Origin: an uncultured Armatimonadia bacterium
GTDB taxonomy: Bacteria > Armatimonadota > Zipacnadia > CAVVLO01
DNA length: 64,000 bases
Assembly: GCA_963749155.1 (NCBI GenBank)
Contig: CAVVLO010000003.1
Span: 96,001 to 160,000 of the forward strand
Direction of reading: 5' to 3'
Shown here: positions 42,930 through 57,204 of the stretch, in pieces
How positions within the stretch are numbered: the stretch's first letter is position 1
Layout: every line of letters begins with the position of its first letter
Program-made: the position numbers and the translations under genes
Notes under the pieces: model-generated
Database searches by the model: none
Seen by the model: the letters and a program-made list of their open reading frames with translations, nothing else
What the model was told of the DNA's origin: nothing

Positions 42930-43616
42930 TTAGGTAGTGCGCGAAACCTCGCTGTGCCAGCGGTCTGCAAGCAGGAGTGCCAAAGCCGCAGCCCCTATCA
43001 CTCCGAAGCCAGCGGTAAGATATTTGGGAGACACGGCGAAAGCCAGTATGCCCCCCGCAAGGACTGGGATGCCATATTTGACAAACTGCAGCGCCACCTG
43101 GCCTGGCAAGGGTGCTTTTTCAGCAGACTGCTCGGACCAGCTCTTGAACATAAGAGAGAAGACGACAATATATGCTAACATTGCAAGCAGCAGCCAGTTG
43201 CCCGGGCTCAGTCCCCAGTGCCACAGCACCCACCACCCCACTGCCCACACGCTAACACCGAGGGCTACGTACCTCGCAAGGCTTAGGAGATTGCGCTTCT
43301 CGGCTGTAGTCTTGCAAATATAACGGAGGCACAGCCAGTGCCCACTAAAAACAAGCAGCACGCCAAGCGCGAACGTCGCAACCCTCCACTGCATCCCGAG
43401 TGGCTGCTCAGGGGCAACCGCCCAGGCACAAAAGAAAAAGCCAGCATAATCCAGCAACTGTGTTACCGGATATAGAGGGTTCACAGACCTAACATAGGGA
43501 TTGACCTGGTGCTCCGGATGAATCTCCGGCCACGGTGTCCCGCAGGCAGGACAGACGTCCAGCTTGCCTGAGTAAACGGTATAGCAGTTGGAGCAGATTC
43601 GCTTGCGACCTGTCAC
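42930..43616 (-). CDS. Membrane protein with an N-terminal zinc ribbon
   Basis: CSNC..CPACG, about 6 TM helices; GGAGG RBS. Confidence 0.7.
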   Translation of the reverse strand: MTGRKRICSNCYTVYSGKLDVCPACGTPWPEIHPEHQVNPYVRSVNPLYPVTQLLDYAGFFFCAWAVAPEQPLGMQWRVATFALGVLLVFSGHWLCLRYICKTTAEKRNLLSLARYVALGVSVWAVGWWVLWHWGLSPGNWLLLAMLAYIVVFSLMFKSWSEQSAEKAPLPGQVALQFVKYGIPVLAGGILAFAVSPKYLTAGFGVIGAAALALLLADRWHSEVSRTT

Positions 43617-43712
43617 GAAGCTCCCTCCTGGCTAGAACCAAATCTCATTGATCCGAACCCGAAAGCCTTTGGTAACCTGCTCGTAGCACCTCGAAACAGC
43701 CTCGTAGCCTCC

Positions 43713-43780
43713 CGCTCTGTTGCGGTCTAGCTACCTCCTCCCTAACCCCCACCCTCCCGGGGGTGCAAGCAGCGTGCCAG
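43713..43780 (-). repeat. Dispersed element copy 1: sigma-54 promoter followed by G-tracts
   Basis: CTGGCACGCTGCTTGCA followed by CCCCCGGGAGGGTGGGGGTTAGGG; 43740..43780 differs from 50409..50449 at one base. Confidence 0.85.
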
Positions 43781-43850
43781 AACCTGGCCAGGAAGGCGCT
43801 CCAGACAAAAGATTTTCGAAAGGTTTACACGGTGGAAACCCGCTTCACCT

Positions 43851-44451
43851 CTAACCCGGGGTTTCGCGCTCCTCGGATCTTGCCCCAGTCAGCAGCTCCC
43901 CACTAGTGAAGGCCAACTGGCTGCCCACCACTGCTGGCACGAGCCAAGGCTGAGCGAGCGCGAGGATGACCACGGGCAGCGCCACGGCTCCGTAACAGCA
44001 GGAAGTAGTGAAGTGCGCCTCCCCACTCGGTTCCGGACGCATACCTCGGGCAACGCAAGACCGTCAGGGCGAACCAGGCCAGGTAACTGTAAAACGCTAT
44101 CATCAACCAGAGTGAGTAACTGAGCCGCGCCACGTAAAGTAGCAGGCCCCCAGCCACCGCAAGCGCCAGTATCCAGAGATAGGCAACCGCCGCGCGGCGC
44201 AACTCGCCTGGGTCCGCCCGGTCCCGCAGCCCGAACGCAGCAGCGCAGAGGCCGGCAAGCAGGAGGAACACAAAGGTCACGGCGAGAGAGGCTAGTTCCA
44301 GCGGGAGACTTAGCTCCGCGTGAAGAATAACGGCCACGAGCAACCCCGCCAGTCCCACCACCAGCAGCAGCACTTCCAGTGCATAGGCAAGCCCTCGCAC
44401 TAGCCACCGGTGCTCGCTTTCGGACTGCTCCCCAGACTCAGGCTCTGCCAC
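43851..44451 (-). CDS. Hypothetical membrane protein (probable frameshift near the 3' end)
   Basis: Hydrophobic ORF 43903..44451; the hydrophobic sequence continues in the 43851..44042 frame. Confidence 0.6.
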
Positions 44452-44473
44452 GGCAGATCGACCTCCGCTCCCC

Positions 44474-45590
44474 TCAGTACCTCCCGTGCTCTTCGACCAG
44501 CTTCGTAATCAGCTCGCACTTGTGCGGCTGACCGTCGGGAGGCATCTGGTCGCACACTCCAATTATCAGTTTAGCACCTTCCATCAGGTGTTCGAGACAT
44601 TCCATCACGATTTTTTCAACCGCGGAGTCCGGATAAAGATTGCTGAAGTAGGCGCCAGGCACGCCCGTCCACAGGATTACATCCGGCCCGGCCATTGCGC
44701 GCATCTCGCTTGGGGCGACATCTCCCACCGGGTAAGGTGTCAGCGACTGGGCGCACTCGATGCCTCCCAGATGGAAAAGCTCCAGCACGCCGCGCATCGT
44801 CCCATCAATATGCACGAACCCATGCTTGCCCGGCCTCGTGGATCTGCTTGCCGCGCTTTTGGTGGAAGGGGATGTAAAACTCCTTGTACAGCTTCGGACT
44901 CACGACCTCGGAGGTGATGTTCTCCCCGAAGTAGACCATCGGCGCCGGGGAGCCGCAGACGATTGGGTAGATCTTCTCGTCCAGCTCGTCCAGCGCTTCG
45001 ACCGTCCGCCAGACCTCGTCCGGATCGTCCGCGAGGGCATAAGTAGTGTTCATAACGCCCATCCAGATGACTATCAGATTGGCCAGGGGGATGCGCGGCG
45101 GGATGCTGCTCGCGATGCCCTGCTCTCCCCACAGCTCGATCTGGCGCTCCTGATGGATATAGTTCGGTTTCACCTGGGTATGCCGGGCGAGAAACTGCAA
45201 AGTCCGCAGGTCGGCTGCATCTTTGACAGGATAATCAAGGTAAGCCCAGGTGTAGCCCATCGGCTCATACTGCTGCACCTGATGCAGAGTGCCGACAGGG
45301 GTGATCCACTCGGTGTGAGCGATCTGCCGGTCGCCCTTCTGCTCCTGCCAGCCCTTCACCTGGATCTCGTCGGTGTCATACCACTGCTCCCAGGGCTGGG
45401 CCAGCACATGCTCGTGCGCTCCGACGCCGAGGTCTTTGTAAAGCTGCACGACGCCCTCGCCCATATATTTCTCGGGCATCTGGCCGGACTGCGCCATCGC
45501 GTTATACCAGTAAGTCAGATCGCCAAACCAGGGCACCACATCAGGCGTGCGCCCCTCGAAAACGGCGGTTATGCGTTCTTTGGGTGTCAT
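44474..45590 (-). CDS. Uroporphyrinogen decarboxylase family protein, close paralogue of 41798..42914 (frameshift near 44820)
   Basis: MTPKERITAVFEGRTPDVVPW, HIDG, VCDQMPPD. Confidence 0.85.
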
Positions 45591-45603
45591 TTTGAGCTCC
45601 TTC

Positions 45604-46623
45604 CTAGTCAGCGCGCCAGGCGCGTCCAGCGGCAATCATCGCTTCGAGATTGGCAATAGGGGTCTCGGCTGGCAGGTCGCAGCCCGTGCTAAGTACAAAA
45701 TTGGGATAAGGCGCCATCTTGGCGAGGAGAGCCTCTGTCTCCGCCGTCACAGCCTCGGGCCTGCCGCGCAGTATCGTCCCCGTCGGTGACAGATTGCCAA
45801 CGATAAGCACACCCTCTCCGGCCTGGTCGGCTGCCTCGGCCAAATCCAGTCCAGTCTCGGGAGAATCAAGGCTCAGCGCGTCCGCGCCTGTGGCCACCAT
45901 AGATTTGATGAGGTGAGTGGTGTTGCCGCAGATATGCAGCACCGCCGCCGCCTCGCGAGAATGCACCAGGTCTGTCAGCCTGGCGCACCACTTGCCTGAA
46001 AAGCCTTCGAACTGGCGCGGCCCCAGCATTACAGCGCTCGGTTCGAGCAGGCAGATGACCTCAGCGCCCGCCTCGAGCAGCGCCTGGGCGAAGAGGGCCA
46101 GCTTGCTCGTAGCCAGCTCGCACAGTTCCTCCATCCGCTCAGGCTCTTCCAGCGTCAGCAAGGCGGCTTCCTCAGCGCCAACCAGCAAGCCAACAAGCGA
46201 GAAGGGGCCGATCATATACGCCCCGCAGAGGACAGACTTGGGCAGCAGTCCACTCATCCGCCTGACCGCTTCCAGGTACGCCATCACGCGGCCATCCTGC
46301 AGCAGCTCAACGCCGGCGATGCGCTCAAGTTCACCCGGCTTCAAGGCAGAATGGCGCACTGCGCCGACATCATCAACAGGATAAACTGTAAGCTTGCCCA
46401 GCGCATTGGCCTCCAGCGTCAGGTCCATCAGCGGGAAGAGGAGATCAATATCCAGCCTCTCCACAAGCGCCCGCAGCACTTTCTCATGCTCGACAGCGTT
46501 TTGCTGCGCCAGTTTCATCGTCGTATCTACAAGTTGAAGGCCAGGAGCCCCGGCCAGCGGCACGATGAGTCTGCGCCCCTCAGCTAGTGCTTGCTCCTGC
46601 GCCTTTGGCAAGGCCTTGCTCAT
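45604..46623 (-). CDS. MtaA/CmuA-like methyltransferase (UroD family)
   Basis: MDLTLEANALG, GPFSL, LHICG, GNLSP, LSTGCDLP (His-x-Cys...Cys zinc ligands). Confidence 0.85.
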   Translation of the reverse strand: MSKALPKAQEQALAEGRRLIVPLAGAPGLQLVDTTMKLAQQNAVEHEKVLRALVERLDIDLLFPLMDLTLEANALGKLTVYPVDDVGAVRHSALKPGELERIAGVELLQDGRVMAYLEAVRRMSGLLPKSVLCGAYMIGPFSLVGLLVGAEEAALLTLEEPERMEELCELATSKLALFAQALLEAGAEVICLLEPSAVMLGPRQFEGFSGKWCARLTDLVHSREAAAVLHICGNTTHLIKSMVATGADALSLDSPETGLDLAEAADQAGEGVLIVGNLSPTGTILRGRPEAVTAETEALLAKMAPYPNFVLSTGCDLPAETPIANLEAMIAAGRAWRAD

Positions 46624-46635
46624 CTGAAAAGCTCC

Positions 46636-48114
46636 TTATAACTCTGCAACTTGCAGAAAGGTCTTGTACGCCTCATCAAAGGCCCCGGTATCTTCAGGTG
46701 TATACGTTTCCAGGCCAAAGGAATCCCGGATGACTTCGCGAGCCTCACTGAGGCCGGCCAACTCGCCCGTCGCGATGGCCTGCATCAGGATATTTCCGAG
46801 TGCCGTCGCCTCGTAAGGCCCGACGATGACCGGCACGCCGCAGGCATTGGCCGTGAACTGCGAGAGCAGCCTGTTCTGCCCACCGCCACCGACGATATGG
46901 ATAGTGTCCAGCTTGCCGCCGCGTATCTCCTGCAGCTTCTCGAAGGTCCACTTGTACTTCAGAGCGAGACTCTCGAGCGCCACGCGCACCAGTTCGCCCT
47001 TGCTGGTCGGCACCTGCTGGCCGCTTTCCTGGCAGAACTGCGCGATACGGGCCGGCATATCGCCAGGCTTCAGGAAAAGCTCGGCGTCCGGATCAATGAC
47101 CGCGAGGAAAGGCTTCGCCTCGGAGGCCATCCGGGTAATGGTGACATAGTCCAGCACCTCGCCCTCGCGCTCCCAGGTGCGGCGACACTCCTGGATCAGC
47201 CACAGGCCCATAACATTTTTGAGGAAACGGAAGGTCCCGTCCACACCGCCCTCGTTGGTGAAGTTGTACTTCAGCGCTGCCTCGGTCACCAGCGGCTCCT
47301 TCACCTCAAGGCCTGGCAGCGACCAGGTGCCGCTGCTGATGTAAGCATGGTTGGTGCCCCGCGCAGGCACTGCGGCTACGGCCGAGCCCGTGTCATGCGT
47401 CGCAGGCGCGATAACGGGCACAGCGCCCAGGTTGGTCTGCTCCTGCATCGAGGGATGCAGCGGCCCAAGCAGCGTGCCGGGCGGGACGATCTCGCCCAGG
47501 AACCCGCTCGGGATGCCCAGCTTGTCGAGCAGCTCCGTCGCCCAGCGCCCCTCGCGCGGGTTGTAGAACTGCGTCGTCGTCGCGTCCGAGAACTCATTGG
47601 CCTTTACGCCCGTCAGCCAGAAGTTGAAAAGGTCGGGTATCATCAGAAGTCGCTTGGCATTGTCCAATAAGGAGCTCTGCTGCTTCACCATCGCAGCAAG
47701 CTGGAACAGCGTATTGAGCTGCATAAACTGGATGCCCGTCTGGTTGAAGATCTCCTCGCGCGGAACGAGGTCAAACACATAGTCCAGCATCCCGTCGGTG
47801 CGCGCATCGCGATAGTGCCAGGGGTTCGAGAGCAGCACATCGTCCTTGTCCAGCAGGCCGAAGTCCACCCCCCAGGTGTCGATACCTATGCCTTTCAGCT
47901 CTTCGACCTCGGCGGCGGCCATCCGGAGGCCGTTGCGTATCTCGCCGAAGAAGCCAAGCACGTCCCAGTGCATTCCGGTGGGCAGTATGGTACCGCCGGT
48001 TGGGAACCTGTGGATCTCGCGCAGCGAGACCTTGCCTCCGGTGAGTTCGCCGATTACCGCGCGACCACTTTCAGCACCGAAATCAAAAGCCAGATAGGTA
48101 GCGGATTTCGCCAT
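46636..48114 (-). CDS. rhaB: Rhamnulokinase (FGGY family)
   Basis: LAFDFGAESGR, IGIDTWGVDF, HDTGSAV, SSGTWS, FLKNVMGLWLIQE. Confidence 0.88.
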   Translation of the reverse strand: MAKSATYLAFDFGAESGRAVIGELTGGKVSLREIHRFPTGGTILPTGMHWDVLGFFGEIRNGLRMAAAEVEELKGIGIDTWGVDFGLLDKDDVLLSNPWHYRDARTDGMLDYVFDLVPREEIFNQTGIQFMQLNTLFQLAAMVKQQSSLLDNAKRLLMIPDLFNFWLTGVKANEFSDATTTQFYNPREGRWATELLDKLGIPSGFLGEIVPPGTLLGPLHPSMQEQTNLGAVPVIAPATHDTGSAVAAVPARGTNHAYISSGTWSLPGLEVKEPLVTEAALKYNFTNEGGVDGTFRFLKNVMGLWLIQECRRTWEREGEVLDYVTITRMASEAKPFLAVIDPDAELFLKPGDMPARIAQFCQESGQQVPTSKGELVRVALESLALKYKWTFEKLQEIRGGKLDTIHIVGGGGQNRLLSQFTANACGVPVIVGPYEATALGNILMQAIATGELAGLSEAREVIRDSFGLETYTPEDTGAFDEAYKTFLQVAEL

Positions 48115-48303
48115 CCAGATCACCTCAACGAGACCTTGATAGGGCGGCGCAAAGCCCTCTTGGGAAGAGGCTTGCGTCGGGGCTAGCAACCCTTTCGGGC
48201 CGCAGGATACCTGCCTGGAAGCCACTTGGCAATAGAAAAAGGACAAGCGCCTGCGATGCATACAAAAGTTCTGTCAAAGTGACGCGCTTCCTCCTAGTCC
48301 AGG

Positions 48304-48329
48304 GCAGGAACCGCCTTCCCTTCAGCGAA
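48304..48329 (+). promoter_or_regulatory. SigH-like promoter
   Basis: GCAGGA-N17-GAA. Confidence 0.6.
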
Positions 48330-48370
48330 CCTGCGGCAAGTCAGAAATTAGCAGTCAGGAGGCGCGTCCA

Positions 48371-49384
48371 ATGCGCAACGCCACAATCGTTTTTCCCGCC
48401 AAGGGAGAAGTCATACTTGAAGATCGTCCCATACCCGCCGTCGCAGAAGGCATGCTGCTTGTAAGGACCTTGAAGACCCTAATCAGCACGGGCACCGAGA
48501 GCATCTGTTTTCTATCGAAGTTTACTCCTGACACCCACTGGGCCAACTGGGTGAAATATCCCTTCCAGCCTGGCTATTCTCAAGTGGGCATCGTTGAAGA
48601 AATCGGCGCCGGTGTGACTGGCTTTGAGGTTGGCGAGCTTGTCGCGACCGAGACCCAGCATCAGGCCTGGGCCAATATCTGGCCGCCCTCGGCTATCAAG
48701 GTGCCTGAGGGAGTAACGCCGACTGACGCGACCTGGCATTCACTGGGACGCATCGCACAGGTGGGCGTAAGGAAAGCCGACCACGAGTTAGGCGATGCCG
48801 TGGTGATTATCGGGCTTGGGCTGCTTGGCCAGCTTGTCACCCAGTATGTGCGACTGATGGGCGCGCGGCAGGTCATCGCGATAGACACTTCGGATTTCCG
48901 CCTCGAGCTTGCCAAAGAGCATGGCGCCACCCACTGCCTGCTGATGCCTGTGCAGGACGCGAAAGACACCGTATTGGAACTCACCGGTGGCCGCGGCGTG
49001 GATGTGGCCTACGACATCACGGGCGCCTGGCAAGTGCTGCCCCACGCGCTGCCCCTGGTCTGCAGGCATGGCAAGGTGCTGATACTCGGAGACACGGGCC
49101 ATCCAGAGAAACAAGTGCTGACTGGTGATGTCGTCTGTCGCGGCGTGAGCATCATCGGCGCTCATGCTGTGCTGCCCAGTTTCGAAGTTACAGACAAGGA
49201 ATACTGGAGCCGCGGCAACATCGAGAGCCTCTTCCTGGAGTATATCCGACGCGGCGATATGGTTGTCGAAGACCTGGTTACGCATATCTTCTCGCCTGCC
49301 GACTGCGCGGAAGCCTATGGCGCGCTCGAAGAGCAACGCGAGACGATGATGGGCGTTGTTTTCGACTGGGAAGCTGACCTCTAA
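48371..49384 (+). CDS. Zinc-binding (MDR) dehydrogenase family protein
   Basis: LISTGTE, YPFQPGYS, IIGLGLLG. Confidence 0.88.
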   Translation: MRNATIVFPAKGEVILEDRPIPAVAEGMLLVRTLKTLISTGTESICFLSKFTPDTHWANWVKYPFQPGYSQVGIVEEIGAGVTGFEVGELVATETQHQAWANIWPPSAIKVPEGVTPTDATWHSLGRIAQVGVRKADHELGDAVVIIGLGLLGQLVTQYVRLMGARQVIAIDTSDFRLELAKEHGATHCLLMPVQDAKDTVLELTGGRGVDVAYDITGAWQVLPHALPLVCRHGKVLILGDTGHPEKQVLTGDVVCRGVSIIGAHAVLPSFEVTDKEYWSRGNIESLFLEYIRRGDMVVEDLVTHIFSPADCAEAYGALEEQRETMMGVVFDWEADL

Positions 49385-50253
49385 TCAGCTTTTGGTTTTA
49401 GTCGCGCGTCAAGCCATTCGACAATTACCTCAGTTGGGGTGGGCATGCCAGGCGTAGTGAGCTGGCCATGACCTGCCCCTTCATAGGTTACGAGTTTGGC
49501 TTCAACTTTGGCGGCTTCGAGCCTCGCAAGCAAATCAACTGACTGCTGGTAAGGCACCAACTTGTCCGCGGTGCCGTGCAGAATCAGCACGGGCGGGTCG
49601 GCTTCATCTACCCATAATATCGGAGAGGCTTGTGTGAGGCCTTGCATGACTTGCTCCTCAGGGGTGCCTGCGGGGAAGAAACCGAGTATCTCGGGCCTTT
49701 GGGCAATAGAGCGCAAGTCGGTCGGGCCAAAGAGGGAGACCACTGCTTTGATGCCCAGATTGCTGGCCTTCCAGACCTGCGAGTCCCCGGTATCGGCCAT
49801 ATCGGACAGGCCTGTCATAAGCGCCAGATGCCCTCCGGCGGAGCTTCCCATCACAGCCAGGCGATCGGGATCGAGTTTGGCGCGAGTCGGAAGCTGGGCG
49901 CGCGCGAACTTCACTGCCTGGAGGCAATCGTAGAGGTTCGCGGGCCAGATCATATTGGGCGTCAGGCGATACTGGATGCTTATAACAACGTAGCCGGACT
50001 GCTTCAGTTGGGCCCAGGCGCAGGGGCTTTTATCGCCGTTGCGCCAGCCGCCCCCGTGGATGAAGAGGACTCCTGGGAAGGGCCCCTCTCCCTCGGGGAT
50101 ATAAACATCGAGCCTCAAGGGAGGCTCGGTATAGTCGGCGAATACTAGATCCGACAGGTCGGGCTGGATCGGGGCAGGCCTGGCAATTTGTGCCTGAAGA
50201 GCCAGGGCTGAGCAAGCCAGCAAGAGTAAAACAAGCGGTAGGATTTTTTGCAT
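49381..50253 (-). CDS. Secreted alpha/beta hydrolase (BD-FAE/acetyl esterase-like)
   Basis: IHGGGW, GSSAGGHL, HGTADKLVP, GAGHG; signal peptide. Confidence 0.88.
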   Translation of the reverse strand: MQKILPLVLLLLACSALALQAQIARPAPIQPDLSDLVFADYTEPPLRLDVYIPEGEGPFPGVLFIHGGGWRNGDKSPCAWAQLKQSGYVVISIQYRLTPNMIWPANLYDCLQAVKFARAQLPTRAKLDPDRLAVMGSSAGGHLALMTGLSDMADTGDSQVWKASNLGIKAVVSLFGPTDLRSIAQRPEILGFFPAGTPEEQVMQGLTQASPILWVDEADPPVLILHGTADKLVPYQQSVDLLARLEAAKVEAKLVTYEGAGHGQLTTPGMPTPTEVIVEWLDARLKPKAD

Positions 50254-50380
50254 TGGTAAAGCACCCCCCTTGGGGAGATAGACGCCCAGAAGTGGCGAGC
50301 TGTTCACCTGGACTGTTAAGAGATTTGGGAGTGATACTCTGGCAACACTTCAGAGCAACGGTGTCACAAGCCTGCAACCG

Positions 50381-50449
50381 CGCTCTGTTGCACTTCTAGT
50401 TTCACCATCCCTAACCCCCACCCTCCCGGGGGTGCAAGAAGCGTGCCAG
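50381..50449 (-). repeat. Dispersed element copy 2: sigma-54 promoter followed by G-tracts
   Basis: CTGGCACGCTTCTTGCA CCCCCGGGAGGGTGGGGGTTAGGGATGGTGAAACTAG..GCAACAGAGCG. Confidence 0.85.
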
Positions 50450-50560
50450 AAGCGGGGCAAAAGGAGAGCCAGGATGAAAGGTTTACGGAAGGTTTACGTT
50501 TTAGATACGCAAAAGGCCAACGCCAACGGGGACCAGTCTGTAGAGAGTTGCAGCCTTCGA

Positions 50561-51913
50561 GTGCTTCCTCTCCCCTCGATTTGGGCTTTGACGCTTGCGT
50601 GCCTGGTAACAGTGATTTCCCTTCCTCCTTCGCCTTCCCCGCCTCGGAGCGGCCTTTTGCCCCTTGTCTTGCGGATTTTCTGGCAACTGTCTACGCCCCG
50701 CCAGACCAGTTCGACGCGGACCTCGGCAATGGGATGATCCGGCTCTGGCTTTCGAGTGCGACTGGAGCACCGTCGAGCCGCAGCGGGGCGAGTGGCATTT
50801 CGAGGCGATGGACAAAGTGGTTCTCGCCCTGCACGAGCGCGGTATGCAGGTCGTGCCCCTGCTTGCTTACACCGCCGGATGGGCCTCCAGCGCGCCCGAT
50901 GGCAACGGCAACGCTCCCCCGCGCGAGGTTGCAGACTGGGAGAACTACGTCGAGAAGATGGTCGCTCGTTATTCACGCCCGCCCTTCAACGTGAAGTACT
51001 TCCAGCTCTGGAACGAGCCCAAGTGGAGTGTCGATACTGGCTTCTGGACTGGCACAGGCCCCGAGTGGGTGGATATGATTTTCATCCCAGGGGCACGTAT
51101 CATCCGCAAATATGGCTGCAAGACCGTCTTCGGCGGTTGGCCTTGCAACCAGCCGCAGGACCTCGACACCGCTCTCGAATACAACGACTGCTGGCGCTGG
51201 GTGGATATTATCGACGTCCACTATTTCCCCGTCGACATCTTTCAGGATATGTGGGACAAATACCTCTCTACTGGGCGTTGCGAGGGGCTTTGGCAGACCG
51301 AGATCGGCTGGCTTACTTTCCCGAACTACCTGCCCAACTGCTATCTGCGCGCGCTCTACTGGGCGCTTGGACACGGCTGGGAGGAGGGTTCGGACAGGTA
51401 CAAGCTGTTCTGGTTCGCTTGCTGGGGAGCTGGACCGGATGGGCCAGCCAGCCTTACTCAACCAGGGGAAGGCGGCAATGTCCTCTCCCAGCATGGGCTG
51501 CGGCAGAAGGTTCTGAACGAAGTGCTCGGGGGCGAGCAGCTTGCCAGGTATGACGATTACACTACCAGCCTCAATCTGCAAGCCGAACTTACCGAGGAGA
51601 AACCCACCGGACTCGGCTTCCAGGTAGGAGAAGCGCGTCGAGTGGTGGCGCTGCTCCTCACGCCCGACTTGCTGAAAGCTAACGCCTCAGTGGTCGTTAC
51701 TCTGGGAAGTCTCTCCAGACAGCCTGCCTAGCGTACGCCTTCTGGATGTACTGGGGAATCCCCTGACGGTTGACTCCTCCTGGGCTGATGGGAAGCTGAC
51801 CTGCACCTTCCCAACCGACCAACTGAAAGCCCGAGACTGCCCGAAACTATGGCGTGGACTTCCCCATCGCGCCGGCTTATCTGGTGGTGGATTGCGCCAA
51901 TCCTGAGCCCTGA
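50561..51913 (+). CDS. Secreted GH39/GH5-like (clan A) glycoside hydrolase, several frameshifts
   Basis: DWSTVEPQRGEWHF, LAYTAGWA, FQLWNEP, IDVHY, LWQTEIG; the signal peptide and the C-terminus (..YGVDFPIAPAYLVVDCANPEP*) are in other frames; start approximate. Confidence 0.7.
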
Positions 51914-52170
51914 GACTGGACTCTCAAACAAATCTTGGCCAGTTTTCCGCAGGTTAAGCGCCTATTTCACCTTGCTGGCACGCTTCTTGCTTACCCCGGG
52001 TGGGTGGGGGCTAGGGATGGTGTAACTAGCGCGAACCGCGTAACTGGAGTGTTACCGGGTTTTTAGGAAAAGGCTGCAACCTGTGGAATTGCTACCAGCA
52101 CCTTCAGCTGAATAAAGGAAAAGTCGCTCTCGACTCCGCAACCGTTCTTCCCCATCGCGCCGGCTTATCT
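51859..52170 (+). repeat. 24-bp perfect direct repeat CTTCCCCATCGCGCCGGCTTATCT at 51859..51882 and 52147..52170
   Basis: Direct comparison; both copies continue 2 nt later into TGGTGGA. Confidence 0.9.
51975..52029 (+). repeat. Dispersed element copy 3: sigma-54 promoter followed by G-tracts
   Basis: CTGGCACGCTTCTTGC TTACCCCGGGTGGGTGGGGGCTAGGGATGGTGTAACTAG. Confidence 0.8.
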
Positions 52171-52408: not shown

Positions 52409-54718
52409 CTAGATAGCCCGCAACACCAACAGCTGACCTGGTTCGGTATCAAACTCCAGATAGCCAAGCTCGTTCTGTTCTACACGTACCGGTTCATCTG
52501 CGAGATAAGCCTCGCACGCGACATCGGGCGCCATTATCAAGCACTTCCCCCCCTTGCGAGAGAGGATACTCGCTTCGACAAATTCGTCATTGCGCCAGGT
52601 GATATCGACGACGAAGCCGCCCCGCGCGCAAAGTCCCGTCACCTTGCCTTCGGACCAGGCCTCGGGCAGTGCCGGCAGCAGATGGATAAAGCCCCGCTGG
52701 CTTTGCAGCAGCATCTCGGCCATCGCCGCTGTCGCTCCAAAGTTGCCATCTATCTGGAAGATATGCGGCGGGTGCAAATCCAGCAGGCTGGGCGTCGTGA
52801 ACTGCCGCAGCAGCTCCTGGATATGTTCGAAAGCCAGGTTCCCTTCGAGGAAACGAGCCCACAAAGCGGCAGTCCAGGCGCGACTCCAGCCCGTATGCCC
52901 CCCGCCCGCTGCAAGTCTGAGCTCCAGCGAGACGCGCGCCGCTGTAAACAACTCCGGTAGCCTCTCAGGGGTCATCAGCTCGCCGGGGAATACACCGACC
53001 AGATGGGAATAATGCCGATGACCTGGCTCTACTTCCTCGAAATCTTCCAGCCACTCCTGAAGCTGGCCCTTCCGGCCAATGTGGAAGTCAGCCAGGTGTT
53101 CGAGCGCATATAGCCAGTCCGGACGCAGTGGATCATCCAGTCCAAGCAACTGGCTTGCCGCAAGGCAGCGCTCGAAAGTCTCGCGTACAAAGACCAGGTC
53201 CATTGTCGAAGCGACACCGATACTGACAGGTTCCGCCCCCCCTCTGAACCGGTTCTCGGGCGATTGACTCGGCACGGTAACCAGTTTCCCGTCCTCGGCT
53301 TGCACCAGGTAGTCCAGGTAGAACTCTGCCACCAGTTTGTAGAAGGGATAAGCCTGCTCGCGAAGGAATTCCTCCTCTCCCGAAAACTCCCACCGCTGCC
53401 AGAAGTGCTGCGCGAGCCAGGCCGCAGCGCCTGTCCAGATGTCCCAACCAGGCGACTCAGGGGTGCACCGGGCCCAGACATCATCGGTGATTGGGAAGCA
53501 CACTCCCTTGCACCCGTAGAGCTTATTGGCGGCATCCTTGGCATAGGGCACGGCGCGCCAGACGAATTCGAACAGCGGTGCGGTGCATTCAGGCAGGTTG
53601 CAGATCTCGGCCAGCCAGTAGTTCATCTCGAGGTTTACATCCTGATGGAAGTCCGCATCCCAGGGAGGCGCAAGTTCGGCATTCCAGAGGCCCTGCAGGT
53701 TGGCGGGCTGGTCCGAGTTGCGGCTCGAGGCCATCAGCAGGTAGCGCCCGTAATTAAAGTAGAGCGCCGGTAGTGAGGGATCGTCTTCGCCAGTCCTGAC
53801 TCGCGCCAGGCGTTCCTCAAGGGGCAGAGATTCAAGTTCCTCATCGCCCGGTAAATCCAGGCTGACGCGTGTGAAAAGCGTCTTGTGCTCTCTGGTATGA
53901 GCTTCCAGCACCTCATCGAAGTCGCGCGACAGCAGGTCGAGTCTTTCGGTGCAGCATGAGACAGGATCAGGACACTCGTAGTTGGTGGCCATCGTCAGGG
54001 CAATCCAGGCGGATTTTGCCTCTCCGACAAGCACTTCCCTCTCGTGGCCCGAGGTGTAACCTCCCTCGACGAACAAACGCGCTTCCGCTGCGAAGGCGAT
54101 GCCTTCTTCGAACAAGCCCTCAAGCCCCAGGGAATGCGGGCTGGCCCAGGTGGTCAGCTTGCAGTCGGGATCCAGTGTCCGAGTAAGCTCCGCGGTAAAG
54201 GCCAGAGCGCCTTCGGTATCCGCTTCAAGCTGCACCGACTAGCACGTTGTCAACCGCCGAAGCGAAGACTCGCCTGGTGTAGCCAACTCCCCCCGCCTCA
54301 TAGCTGACCTCAACAACGCCCTTCTTCCAGATACAAGACTCGCGAATAATCACGCGGTTCAGGCTGGTCAAGCAGGTGGAGCACCAATTCACCCAGCGGG
54401 TTGATAGGGCTCTACCCTCCGGTCGTGCCCTGACAGGTGTTCAGTCGCAAGCGCCGCGCCTTCGAGCCATTCTCCAGCAAGGAGTTTCTCTCTGATTGCT
54501 GGCAGGTGGCCTCGCACCATCGGGCAGCTTCGGTCATTGGTACGCCCGCGCCAAAGATTCTCGTGGTTGAGCCAAAGTCGTTCTTCCGGCACGCCTCCTG
54601 CCACCATCGCACCTAACTGGCCATTGCCGACGGGCAAGGCTTCAAGCCACTCTTCGGCTGGCGAAGCTAGCCAAAGCTCGGTTAATATCCTCTCGGCGTC
54701 TTCCATATGCGCCGTCAC
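52409..54718 (-). CDS. GH95 alpha-L-fucosidase-like glycoside hydrolase (frameshifts around 54240-54390)
   Basis: EALPVGNGQLGAMV, FNYGRYLL, PANLQGLWN, PSQSPEN, HRHYSHL, FQIDGNFG. Confidence 0.9.
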
Positions 54719-55636: not shown

Positions 55637-57204
55637 CTGATTATCTCCCCCTCCGCCAGGCTCTTCTCGGCGCTCCACAGCTTGCCGTCCTTGAAGCCAA
55701 GAATCAGACAATCGTCGAAAAGCAGATACACCAGTTCTCCAAGCACTGGAGAAGAACGCGTATAAGTCACCTTGGGTGGCCCGAAGATGCGCTCCGCCAT
55801 CGTCTGAGTCCAGTTCTGACTCAGCTTCCAGGGCTCGAGCAGCAGGGGATGAGTCGCTGCATCGCCCTCAAGAGGGTCCATCTCGAGCGCCCCAGTGAAG
55901 ACCCCATTACGGAAGTAGAACTGCCTGGGCTGATACCTGCCGAACACCTTGCCCCCGGCGCCCGTGTAGTAATAGCCATAGACCTCGCACCACACCTGCT
56001 GCTCCTCGTCGAAGACGATTGTGAAAGTGTTTGGCATCCCAAGGTCGGCTACCAGCTTCGCCTGGTCGCTCGAAGGGGGCCGAAGCGTCGGCAGAAGCCG
56101 CCAGTCCACCTCGGTATATTGCATCTGGAACGACCAGTTGGTATTCCACGTGCCGGCTGAGCCTTTGCGCCAGCGCCCTTTCAGCCACTGGCCATCTGCC
56201 GAAAGACGTAGTTCGAACTGCCCGGCGTCGTTCGGCTCCTGATAGCTGGGCGCCTGACGCCAGGTGCCTGAGAGCAGATCTCCCACCAGGATGCCTTCGA
56301 GTTGCCCCTTGTTCTGAGTGTAGACCCCTGTGATACGGTCGCCATGCTGGGTCAGGGTCAGTTTGTTGGTCTCGCCCTGCCACCAGGTGCCAAGCAGGGG
56401 GCCGCCAGGTGGGATATCGTTCAGGATAAGGTCACTTGGCACATCGCTTGCGCCAGTAGTCGTGCCAGAGGTATCGGTCCAACCGCCAGTAGCGCCGCCC
56501 GGGTCGGTAACGTCGCCTCCAGTGTCAGACGTACCGCCTCCAAGCCAGGGGGGAGCAAGTGGTGTAGTGCCTTTGAAGTAGCTCTCATCCGAGAACCAGG
56601 GCTCGGTGGAAGGGATATTGAAAGATTTCGGCGGCGTTGGAGGCAGCTTGTCTACGGTCTGAGAGGTCTGCCCTGCGCCGACAGTCACTTCGCTCGCGCC
56701 GAGCATCCCGCCTAAAAGGCCACCGCCTGGCTGCCGGAACACGACCGAGCCTTCGTAGCATCGCACTGTGCCAATCTGGTCGGCGGTAATCAGCTCTGCT
56801 CGCGCCGAAACCAGCTCGGACACGCCTCGGGCTGTCTTGATGAAGAGCGCTGGCGAGCAGCCTTCCGCCTTCAAGAAAAGGACGCCGGACTTCACCTTCC
56901 AGCTTTCCTTGCCCGCATCACTTTGAGGGCCGAGGTACTGCACCTGGGTCGAAGGCCCAAGCCTCAGCCAGGCGCCTTCAATAAGGGCGATCTCGCAAGC
57001 CCCATCGAGGCCTGTAGCCAGCGTCGCGCCAGGCAGGATACCTTCCCCCGCCCCCAAATCGGCCTTGGTGCCATCGCCATAATCAACGGTGACCTGGCCG
57101 CGCGCATAGGTAACGAAGGGCCCCTGGGGCAGCGGGGTCAGGGCGACCAGTAGCAGTCCGGCAAATGCAATCCCAAGTAATACTAGAGGCTTGGTTGGTC
57201 TCAT
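55633..57204 (-). CDS. FecR-domain exported protein
   Basis: GATLATGLDGACEIAL..LRLGPSTQV, VRCYEGSV, VTVGAGQ; Gly/Thr linker; further beta domains. Confidence 0.75.
   Translation of the reverse strand: MRPTKPLVLLGIAFAGLLLVALTPLPQGPFVTYARGQVTVDYGDGTKADLGAGEGILPGATLATGLDGACEIALIEGAWLRLGPSTQVQYLGPQSDAGKESWKVKSGVLFLKAEGCSPALFIKTARGVSELVSARAELITADQIGTVRCYEGSVVFRQPGGGLLGGMLGASEVTVGAGQTSQTVDKLPPTPPKSFNIPSTEPWFSDESYFKGTTPLAPPWLGGGTSDTGGDVTDPGGATGGWTDTSGTTTGASDVPSDLILNDIPPGGPLLGTWWQGETNKLTLTQHGDRITGVYTQNKGQLEGILVGDLLSGTWRQAPSYQEPNDAGQFELRLSADGQWLKGRWRKGSAGTWNTNWSFQMQYTEVDWRLLPTLRPPSSDQAKLVADLGMPNTFTIVFDEEQQVWCEVYGYYYTGAGGKVFGRYQPRQFYFRNGVFTGALEMDPLEGDAATHPLLLEPWKLSQNWTQTMAERIFGPPKVTYTRSSPVLGELVYLLFDDCLILGFKDGKLWSAEKSLAEGEIIR

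Follow-up and report, generated by a model that had tools for sequence, protein, structure and literature searches.

We analysed a 64,000-nt stretch of DNA from an uncultured Armatimonadia bacterium, the whole of which is called the window below, and found that it carries three copies of a composite element in which a promoter of the sigma-54 (RpoN) type is joined to a G-rich tract, the G-module, capable of forming a G-quadruplex (G4). The host assembly is a 4.17-Mb genome in seven contigs, 100% complete by markers and without any N. As the original prediction had stated, all three promoters are exact matches to TGGCACG-N4-TTGC with the correct -24/-12 spacing, and each is directly followed by the tract, consisting of (A)CCCCC or (TTA)CCCC and then GGG[A/T]GGGTGGGGG[T/C]TAGGGA (Table 1). 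On the sense strand, the module starts 2-4 nt past the promoter and reads CCCC-GGG-N-GGG-N-GGGGG-NTN-GGGA-Y-GG. The similarities described between the copies were likewise confirmed in the sequence: copies 1 and 2 have GTAAACCTT in common upstream and CTAG..GCAACAGAGCG downstream, and copies 2 and 3 have GGGATGGTG.AACTAG in common.

The promoter motif alone is not beyond chance within the window (four matches with at most one mismatch, against 1.86 expected, a number reached by 11 of 100 shuffles). The combination of promoter and tract is beyond chance, the strict pattern occurring three times in the 4.17-Mb genome, always in the window, and the reversed pattern never.

The product of the gene after copy 1 has a Cys-rich N-terminus followed by hydrophobic stretches and, on this reading of its sequence, would be a membrane protein. 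Copy 3 has no co-oriented gene of a Pfam family downstream; the next real gene, of family GH95 (52409-54235), lies on the opposite strand with its end facing copy 3. No terminator was found after the window copies. An inverted repeat of 11-13 nt flanks each window cassette, with arms that lie 120-170 nt apart and differ between the copies. A fourth sigma-54-like site, TGGCACATCGCTTGC, at 56437-56451 (+), has one mismatch and no G-module downstream.

Table 1. Features of the three window cassettes, and groups of related loci elsewhere. Positions are those of the window unless a contig or locus is named.
Feature	Position or loci	Strand	Remark
Copy 1, phased upstream repeats GTAAACCTTTCGAAAATCTTTTG	43806..43828	-	probable binding or bending site, ~-60 to -30 from promoter
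Copy 1, sigma-54-type -24/-12 promoter TGGCACGCTGCTTGC	43765..43779	-	motif match
Copy 1, G-module CCCCCGGGAGGGTGGGGGTTAGGGAGGA	43736..43763	-	3' AYGG degenerate (AGGA)
Copy 1, downstream gene: 228-aa open reading frame	42930..43616	-	no Pfam family
Copy 1, bracketing inverted repeat arms	43685-43697 / 43861-43873
Copy 2, phased upstream repeats GTAAACCTTCCGTAAACCTTTC	50476..50497	-	11-bp period
Copy 2, sigma-54-type promoter TGGCACGCTTCTTGC	50434..50448	-	motif match
Copy 2, G-module CCCCCGGGAGGGTGGGGGTTAGGGATGG	50405..50432	-	motif and nhmmer
Copy 2, downstream gene: 308-aa BD-FAE / alpha-beta-hydrolase esterase	49381..50307	-	PF20434, 162.5 bits
Copy 2, bracketing inverted repeat arms	50368-50378 / 50547-50557
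Copy 3, sigma-54-type promoter TGGCACGCTTCTTGC	51976..51990	+	motif match
Copy 3, G-module CCCCGGGTGGGTGGGGGCTAGGGATGG	51994..52020	+	loops unlike copies 1 and 2; G-runs kept
Copy 3, bracketing inverted repeat arms	51945-51955 / 52078-52088
Cassettes with paired GTTTCGG repeats	C1:429905, C1:434757, C2:1354456, C2:1359603, C6:40266, C6:44950		outside window
Module loci in metagenome-assembled genome G042	L035-L038, L144, L149, L154, L158, L162
Metagenome loci with C-run and G7AG5	L206, L211, L254, L256, L264, L275, L289, L301, L304		long C/G hairpin at predicted transcript start

The cassette family in the host genome

The three copies of the original prediction are all that the window holds, but they turned out to be the short-spacer subfamily of a larger family. 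A relaxed search of the host genome, for TGGCAY-N5-TTGY with GGGNGGGNGGGGG at most 40 nt away, found the tract at 16 of 64 such promoter sites, and an nhmmer profile gave 16 intact copies and two degenerate ones, copy 1 of the window being the weakest of the 16 matches at 24.3 bits. The family has in common a unit of ~105 bp, made up of phased GTAAA-N-CTT repeats, the sigma-54 promoter and the G-module, the last starting 2 to 12 nt past the -12 element. Measured from TTGY to the first G-run, the spacer is 14-15 nt in subfamily A (nine copies), 16 nt in subfamily B (four copies) and 6-7 nt in subfamily C, the three window copies.

Homology between copies is limited to the region from ~-50 (sometimes -113) to +53..+85, apart from one locally duplicated pair of 708 nt, and the similarity fades ~10-30 nt past the module. 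Putative mobile promoters are defined as segments of 50-100 nt with at least 80% identity ahead of non-homologous genes, and many cassette pairs, with 84-94% identity over 54-118 nt, fall within this definition. The proposal of a mobile cassette thus stands as far as a cassette before unrelated genes, with homology from ~-50 to +55, is concerned, but a comparison with repetitive extragenic palindromic elements and miniature inverted-repeat transposable elements (REP/MITE) revealed no family-wide terminal inverted repeats or target duplications, and the module was always joined to a promoter.

Upstream of the promoter, two GTAAA-N-CTT repeats were present between -75 and -15 at 14 of the 16 module sites, compared with one of the 48 other sigma-54-like sites; they follow an 11-bp period and lie at ~-60 to -30. 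Their geometry resembles that of winged-helix response-regulator boxes or phased A-tract bends, and is unlike that of classical enhancer sites. Half-sites GTTTCGG/CCGAAAC occur in eight of the 16 cassettes, 29 in total against 0.87 expected, and in six cassettes (Table 1) they form paired inverted repeats, GTTTCGG-N12-29-CCGAAAC, at two places, near -100 and near -200. In the leader, the half-site appears once more at ~+74 (AAGTGTTTCGG). To judge from this arrangement, the repeats look like multiple sites for one putative regulator on both sides of the promoter.

The cassettes precede mutually unrelated genes, several of which encode esterases or glycosidases: among 14 downstream open reading frames, Pfam identified a BD-FAE esterase, another alpha/beta hydrolase, a GH3 enzyme, an alpha-L-fucosidase and a pectate-lyase-like protein, and the other nine belonged to no family. 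At least 10 copies precede a gene, most within 50-280 nt, and an independent family of non-coding RNAs, as had been suggested, is therefore unlikely; no co-oriented gene lies within 600 nt of C1:394737, C1:416941, C6:40266 or window copy 3. The RNase P RNA (class A, 309.8 bits; L012:828-1227) ends ~270 nt upstream of the cassette at C3:42726. Several sigma-54-like sites that have no module, C1:203912 (-), C1:931780 (+) and C2:1237871 (-), carry a C-run at ~+1, followed after 12-25 nt by a matching G-run; it may be a general habit of sigma-54 transcripts in this host to begin with a C/G hairpin.

The module outside the host genome

The promoter and tract in combination were absent from 40 relatives searched, and the module from 78 other genomes of the class, in which the single match was a poly-G run; 400 genomes of the phylum gave one GC-rich, chance-like match. 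A scan across species with the pattern CCCCGGGNGGGNGGGGGNTNGGGA, one genome per species, found at least 122 loci, going by the sequence titles mainly in Actinomycetota (Gaiellaceae, Thermoleophilia and several Glycomyces species, among them G. artemisiae, G. paridis and G. harbinensis), in Planctomycetota and in two metagenome-assembled genomes (MAGs) labelled 'Holosporales'. Five carrier genomes had 12, 54, 5-7, 13 and three copies, respectively, and the reversed pattern was found in none; among 150 other Planctomycetota there was one carrier, with seven sites. The distribution of the module is all-or-nothing, multi-copy and patchy.

The fusion of tract and promoter reported for the window holds in the host genome but not elsewhere, as a sigma-54 motif lay within 45 nt upstream at none of the 122 matches listed; the module is therefore not tied to sigma-54. 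Non-host modules appear instead to stand directly behind other promoter-like sequences, which we assigned by reading hexamer-like motifs in the sequence: actinobacterial TAnnnT hexamers, and GCAAC-N15-17-GTCTT in one planctomycete. The genes that follow are unrelated and encode enolase, thymidylate kinase (Tmk), PurF, isocitrate dehydrogenase, carbonic anhydrase, endonuclease V, phosphate acetyltransferase (Pta), HemD, tRNAs and a phage portal protein. Related species keep the module at orthologous loci, two Glycomyces species for instance upstream of the endonuclease V gene.

In the 0.8-Mb Holosporales-labelled MAG (G042; Table 1), 54 module copies lie inside a near-identical repeat unit of more than 350 nt, which comprises a terminator-like hairpin, promoter-like hexamers, the module and a common leader. 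These units, often arranged in divergent pairs ~470 nt apart, precede tRNAs, enolase, tmk and a phage portal gene; a single promoter cassette seems to serve a large part of a reduced genome. In Gaiellales-type genomes, the 27-mer encodes PPGWVGARDG at the end of hydantoinase A, just before hyuB (e.g. L018, L026, L033, L042 and L057), which may be a coincidence or a module embedded in the end of a gene; the 25 loci of this coding kind were classed by eye (a regular expression flagged 13) and left out of later comparisons.

A viral collection yielded three module matches, and with so few the idea of a phage element was discarded. A scan of metagenomes for sigma-54 promoter and tract gave 119 loci, swamped by poly-G since N also matched G, with no clear relative of the host genome among them. 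A class apart among these metagenome sequences, on unrelated contigs, has a sigma-54 promoter, a run of 12-18 C, G7AG5 and then GTATCCCCTTGGGATACCCCATTGTAC (Table 1).

We also considered whether the module might be a ribosome-binding site with its start codon. At 102 of the 122 loci listed, the module context contains ATG, with GGGAGG or GGGGG 6 nt before the AUG, and at the remaining 20 (16%) it contains ACG. An open frame runs from the module ATG at 33 listed loci, and 10 of these continue in frame into a Pfam domain. As a simple explanation this was rejected, as the domains begin 16-24 residues in, downstream starts exist and 20 of the 122 loci have ACG; in the host genome, moreover, the mini-open reading frames that would begin at the module ATG are not conserved.

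Conservation and folding potential of the module

Mismatches were surveyed by matching the 27-mer, with at most three mismatches anywhere, to the host genome and four carriers. This gave 49 sites with 90 mismatches, tallied by hand from the site listing, and none for the reversed pattern that served as control; copies within one genome are related, so that the counts are not independent events, and the pattern recurs across the five genomes. Sixty-four of the mismatches fall on the loop positions 8, 12, 18, 20 and 25, and 21 on the C-run, mostly as a shift of register at its border with run 1. The 16 G-run positions account for four: three in run 1, one in the final GG and none in runs 2-4. 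T19 was never changed and A24 once. The observation made on the window, that the G-runs are kept while the loops vary, thus extends across phyla.

The tract is G4-capable by the usual motif definition, as had been stated: all 16 copies match G3+N1-3 in four tracts, with G4Hunter scores of 2.08-2.17. The host genome contains 169 G4 motifs, compared with 421-446 in composition-matched shuffles (~2.6-fold rarer), and 16 of its 36 short-loop G4 motifs are modules. Folding with ViennaRNA, G4 included, predicted a three-tier G4 in which the C-run pairs with GG(GG) to close the structure, and such a clamp would explain the conservation of the GG after AY. In subfamily A, a helix of 6-10 bp (AAG/AAA/AAC + CCCC : GGGG + UUU) encloses the G-runs, and one of its positions varies between G.U, A-U and C-G. 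Among Glycomyces-type loci, seven to eight of 24 have a complementary C-tract within ~40 nt, which at L155 is CCCGCCC facing GGGCGGG and at L159 CCCACCC facing GGGTGGG, a compensatory change accompanied elsewhere by G.U pairs.

All positions given relative to +1 are predicted, taking the C of the GC as -12. It had been proposed that the tract covers the predicted +1, which is true of the three window copies, where the C-run comes directly after the -12 element, +1 lies within G-run 2 and the module spans -10 to +17. In the other 13 of the 16 copies (subfamilies A and B), the C-run begins at +1 or within one base of it, so that the whole tract would be transcribed there.

At gathering thresholds, Rfam 15 found only a tRNA in the whole window; with E-values up to 1 at 14 loci, no family matched at the module, and the hits to RNase P RNA and tRNAs were to neighbours of it. 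The features expected of a riboswitch were not found, as the downstream genes are unrelated, the window leaders contain no terminator and there is no Rfam match. Judging by titles and abstract openings, none of the publications found describes the module; those retrieved by its sequence concerned human, aptamer and nanotechnology topics, and nothing relevant turned up on bacterial G4 riboswitch candidates or on G4s with sigma-54.

Sigma-54 without a detectable activator

The assignment of the promoters to the RpoN type is supported: their geometry is canonical, and rpoN is present and intact outside the window (G000:C1:910320-911726), as an open reading frame of 468 aa with the activator-interacting domain (AID), the core-binding domain (CBD) and the DNA-binding domain (DBD). 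Its neighbours encode an HDOD/HisKA protein and a hybrid REC-histidine kinase. The motif TGGCAY-N5-TTGC occurs 45 times genome-wide, compared with five for the reversed control, so that the host has a higher signal-to-control ratio for sigma-54 sites than any other of the 26 genomes compared.

The other partner that the promoter type calls for, an enhancer-binding protein (EBP), was not detectable in the host genome, although a gap in the seven-contig assembly might yet hide one such gene. The best matches to PF00158, at 37.8 and 32.8 bits, were both ClpB-like proteins; no convincing GAFTGA-type motif was found in six frames, where a regular expression gave two loose matches in unrelated context; tblastn searches with the EBPs of two relatives recovered receiver domains only; and the host genome contains no HTH_8 domain. 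Among 25 relatives of the class, 17 have both rpoN and an EBP, four have neither, four have an EBP-like gene only and none has rpoN alone; in 20 of the 25, the EBP scores above 190 bits. We class the sites as sigma-54-type promoter cassettes, in a host in which the activator required by that class is lacking from the sequence searched.

Interpretation of the module

The module is probably an undescribed general-purpose leader element. How it would work is less certain, and we tentatively prefer the reading that it is a transcribed 5'-leader element, in the form of a G4 or clamp hairpin, serving as a generic, structure-based expression module. Such an element would be self-contained and would work with any promoter type; once transcribed, it would form the first ~30 nt of the mRNA, and this RNA would fold into a compact G-rich structure, a three-tier G4 with the C-run paired to the GG(GG) after AY. 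Two other pairings would compete with the G4 form, namely a C-run:G5 hairpin and, for some genes, that with an anti-G tract downstream. The module would act in cis and after initiation, by protection of the 5' end or by offering the ribosome, or some other conserved factor, a place to land, and it would not be a gene-specific switch. The reading builds on a sequence family whose position, conservation pattern and patchy multi-copy distribution are established, together with the RNA-type compensatory pairing of some copies. Also in its favour are the C-run at or within one base of the predicted +1 in 13 of the 16 copies, the independence of the module from sigma-54, its retention in a G4-depleted genome and the unrelated nature of the genes downstream.

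Several points weigh against the transcribed leader. In bacteria, RNA G4s reportedly stay mostly unfolded and are subject to counter-selection, and the predicted strength of the fold depends on ViennaRNA's rough G4 energies. The original prediction of an ACCCCC/GGGGGT hairpin is correct in that this Watson-Crick pairing exists, but shuffled sequence folds just as well (z-scores for the three window copies of -2.0, -0.7 and -0.9 as RNA, and of -0.9, -0.4 and +0.4 as DNA). The covariation that was looked for was similarly divided: compensatory pairing is present at some Glycomyces loci, but the closing clamp across 110 diverse sites is no longer than in permuted controls (4.31 compared with 4.24 ± 0.09). 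A generic stabilizer would have no obvious need for the invariant T19 and A24. With +1 in G-run 2, the RNAs from the window copies would lack the C-run and run 1, and the promoter appears likewise to abut the module in the planctomycete G043, in Glycomyces and in the 0.8-Mb MAG; as all elements of the module are conserved despite a +1 inside it, these cases fit a role at the DNA level better. Finally, 25 of the 122 loci listed are coding, at the HyuA C-terminus, so that the pattern can arise for other reasons.

Action at the DNA level is possible, if rather unlikely: a G4 on the non-template strand, or a C-run/G-run hairpin, would help or gate promoter opening, escape or promoter-proximal pausing, and could in the host be part of an unusual sigma-54 initiation that fires without a classical EBP. 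In every case the module occupies the non-template strand immediately past a promoter, every element of it being conserved even where the predicted +1 falls inside, and its AYG with GG 10-11 nt upstream would fit the elemental pause consensus, G-11G-10...Y-1G+1. An intact RpoN with its activator-interacting domain, in a host with no detectable EBP, is also in line with it. Wild-type sigma-54 holoenzyme, however, needs ATP hydrolysis by an activator even on pre-melted templates, and ~48 other sigma-54-like sites in the host have no module, which implies that an activator is needed anyway. In addition, the offset of the module from the predicted +1 varies by ~14 nt among lineages and subfamilies, which is much for an element that has to fit the polymerase, and the compensatory and G.U pairing with the downstream C-tract in Glycomyces points to RNA. 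There is a single NusG gene and no paralogue to read the non-template strand; a reader of the ops/RfaH type was dropped from consideration on finding one NusG gene in each of the five carriers.

Distinctly less to be expected is an aptamer-like RNA, a stem-closed G4 that binds a protein or small ligand and so switches expression, with the C-run and anti-G tracts as alternative partners. The near-invariance of T19, A24 and Y25, the fixed run lengths and the predicted architecture of a helix-enclosed G4 would suit such an RNA, competing pairings exist, and an all-or-nothing, multi-copy spread across phyla would be in keeping with reliance on a partner of patchy distribution. That partner is hypothetical, however, the clamp does not covary across lineages, the window leaders contain no terminator as expression platform, and the absence of a common functional theme among the downstream genes argues against a metabolite riboswitch.

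We consider it improbable that the cassette is a promoter unit that spreads selfishly or was recently duplicated (a mobile promoter, or an element of the MITE kind), with the G-tract as a functionless passenger. Non-homologous genes do have ~105 bp in common at their fronts, copies cluster in pairs 3-5 kb apart, the 0.8-Mb MAG has its 54 near-identical copies within the repeat of more than 350 nt, and there are weak copy-specific flanking inverted repeats (the best repeat averages 9.56 nt over 16 cassettes, compared with 8.58 ± 0.20 in shuffles). It is the 27-mer alone, without its flanks, that phyla have in common, however, with G-runs invariant where loops and flanks diverge; terminal repeats or target duplications common to the copies are lacking, the modules are retained in a G4-depleted genome, and they are kept at orthologous loci of related species, as before endonuclease V in the two Glycomyces. 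A family of small non-coding RNAs beginning with the G-tract is very improbable: some copies have no co-oriented gene within 600 nt, and a second motif, AAGTGTT[TG]C, is found in seven of the 16 leaders against 0.06 expected, but most copies precede a gene within 50-280 nt, their similarity stops ~10-30 nt past the module, no terminator follows the window copies and no Rfam family matches.

A more far-reaching view, which we regard as unlikely, is that the module represents a new, scattered class of structured nucleic-acid element, a clamp-closed three-tier G4 at the transcript start behind any class of promoter. Its conserved reader would be RNA polymerase, the ribosome, or a protein or ligand that is inherited patchily, and here the element might take part in sigma-54 initiation by an activator-independent or otherwise novel route.

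Stable G4 motifs are generally held to be avoided in bacterial transcripts, and the host genome is itself poor in them; nevertheless, four distant lineages retain one precise G4-capable 27-mer at predicted transcript starts, in each case as a multi-copy family. The module is present in cultured Glycomyces species, so that a natural, selected bacterial G4 could be tested directly, and synthetic biology would gain a useful part if the module does prove to be a portable expression element. The host itself, with an intact sigma-54, ~40 promoter-like sites above control, enhancer-like repeats and no detectable EBP, challenges the rule of an obligatory activator.

Comparison with known systems

The cassettes have in common with canonical sigma-54 promoters the exact -24/-12 motif, an intact rpoN and, in some cassettes, enhancer-like paired GTTTCGG...CCGAAAC repeats at ~-100 and -200. 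They differ from them in the lack of a detectable EBP, in the 11-bp-phased direct repeats at -60 to -30 and in the conserved G4-capable module at the predicted transcript start, which the titles and abstract openings of the literature found do not describe for sigma-54 promoters.

Like REP/MITE elements, the module is short, GC-rich, prone to structure, intergenic and multi-copy. In contrast to them, it is co-oriented with and joined to a promoter, is present in 16-18 copies rather than hundreds and has no shared terminal repeats. A closer parallel is promoter propagation in prokaryotes, the putative mobile promoters reportedly described by Matus-Garcia et al. in 2012. Here, too, alike promoter segments of 50-100 nt stand before non-homologous genes in one genome, and some of the mobile promoters are common to distant genera. 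What the phyla have in common in the present case, however, is the 27-nt core alone, behind different classes of promoter, and this position-specific conservation points to function rather than to recent copying.

The STAB-SD of Bacillus cry3A and the 5' hairpin of ompA are stabilizers at the 5' ends of mRNAs. The module resembles such elements in being portable, in lying at or near the 5' end, in its variable distance from the true start codon and in being G-rich and Shine-Dalgarno-like. It is much longer, far more strictly conserved and G4-capable, it contains ACG in 16% of cases, and a stabilizing effect would be hypothetical.

G4s near transcript starts are known from mitochondrial conserved sequence block II (CSB II) and from engineered or natural RNA G4s that mask ribosome-binding sites. 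The module likewise has a short-loop G4 motif, on the non-template strand or in the nascent RNA, directly after a promoter, and subfamily A (GGGTGGGAGGGGGTTTGG) resembles CSB II in its sequence. Nothing in the module data points to termination or priming, however, and the module differs from these elements in being bacterial and multi-copy, in having a C-run as partner, and in being one specific 27-mer that is kept across phyla.

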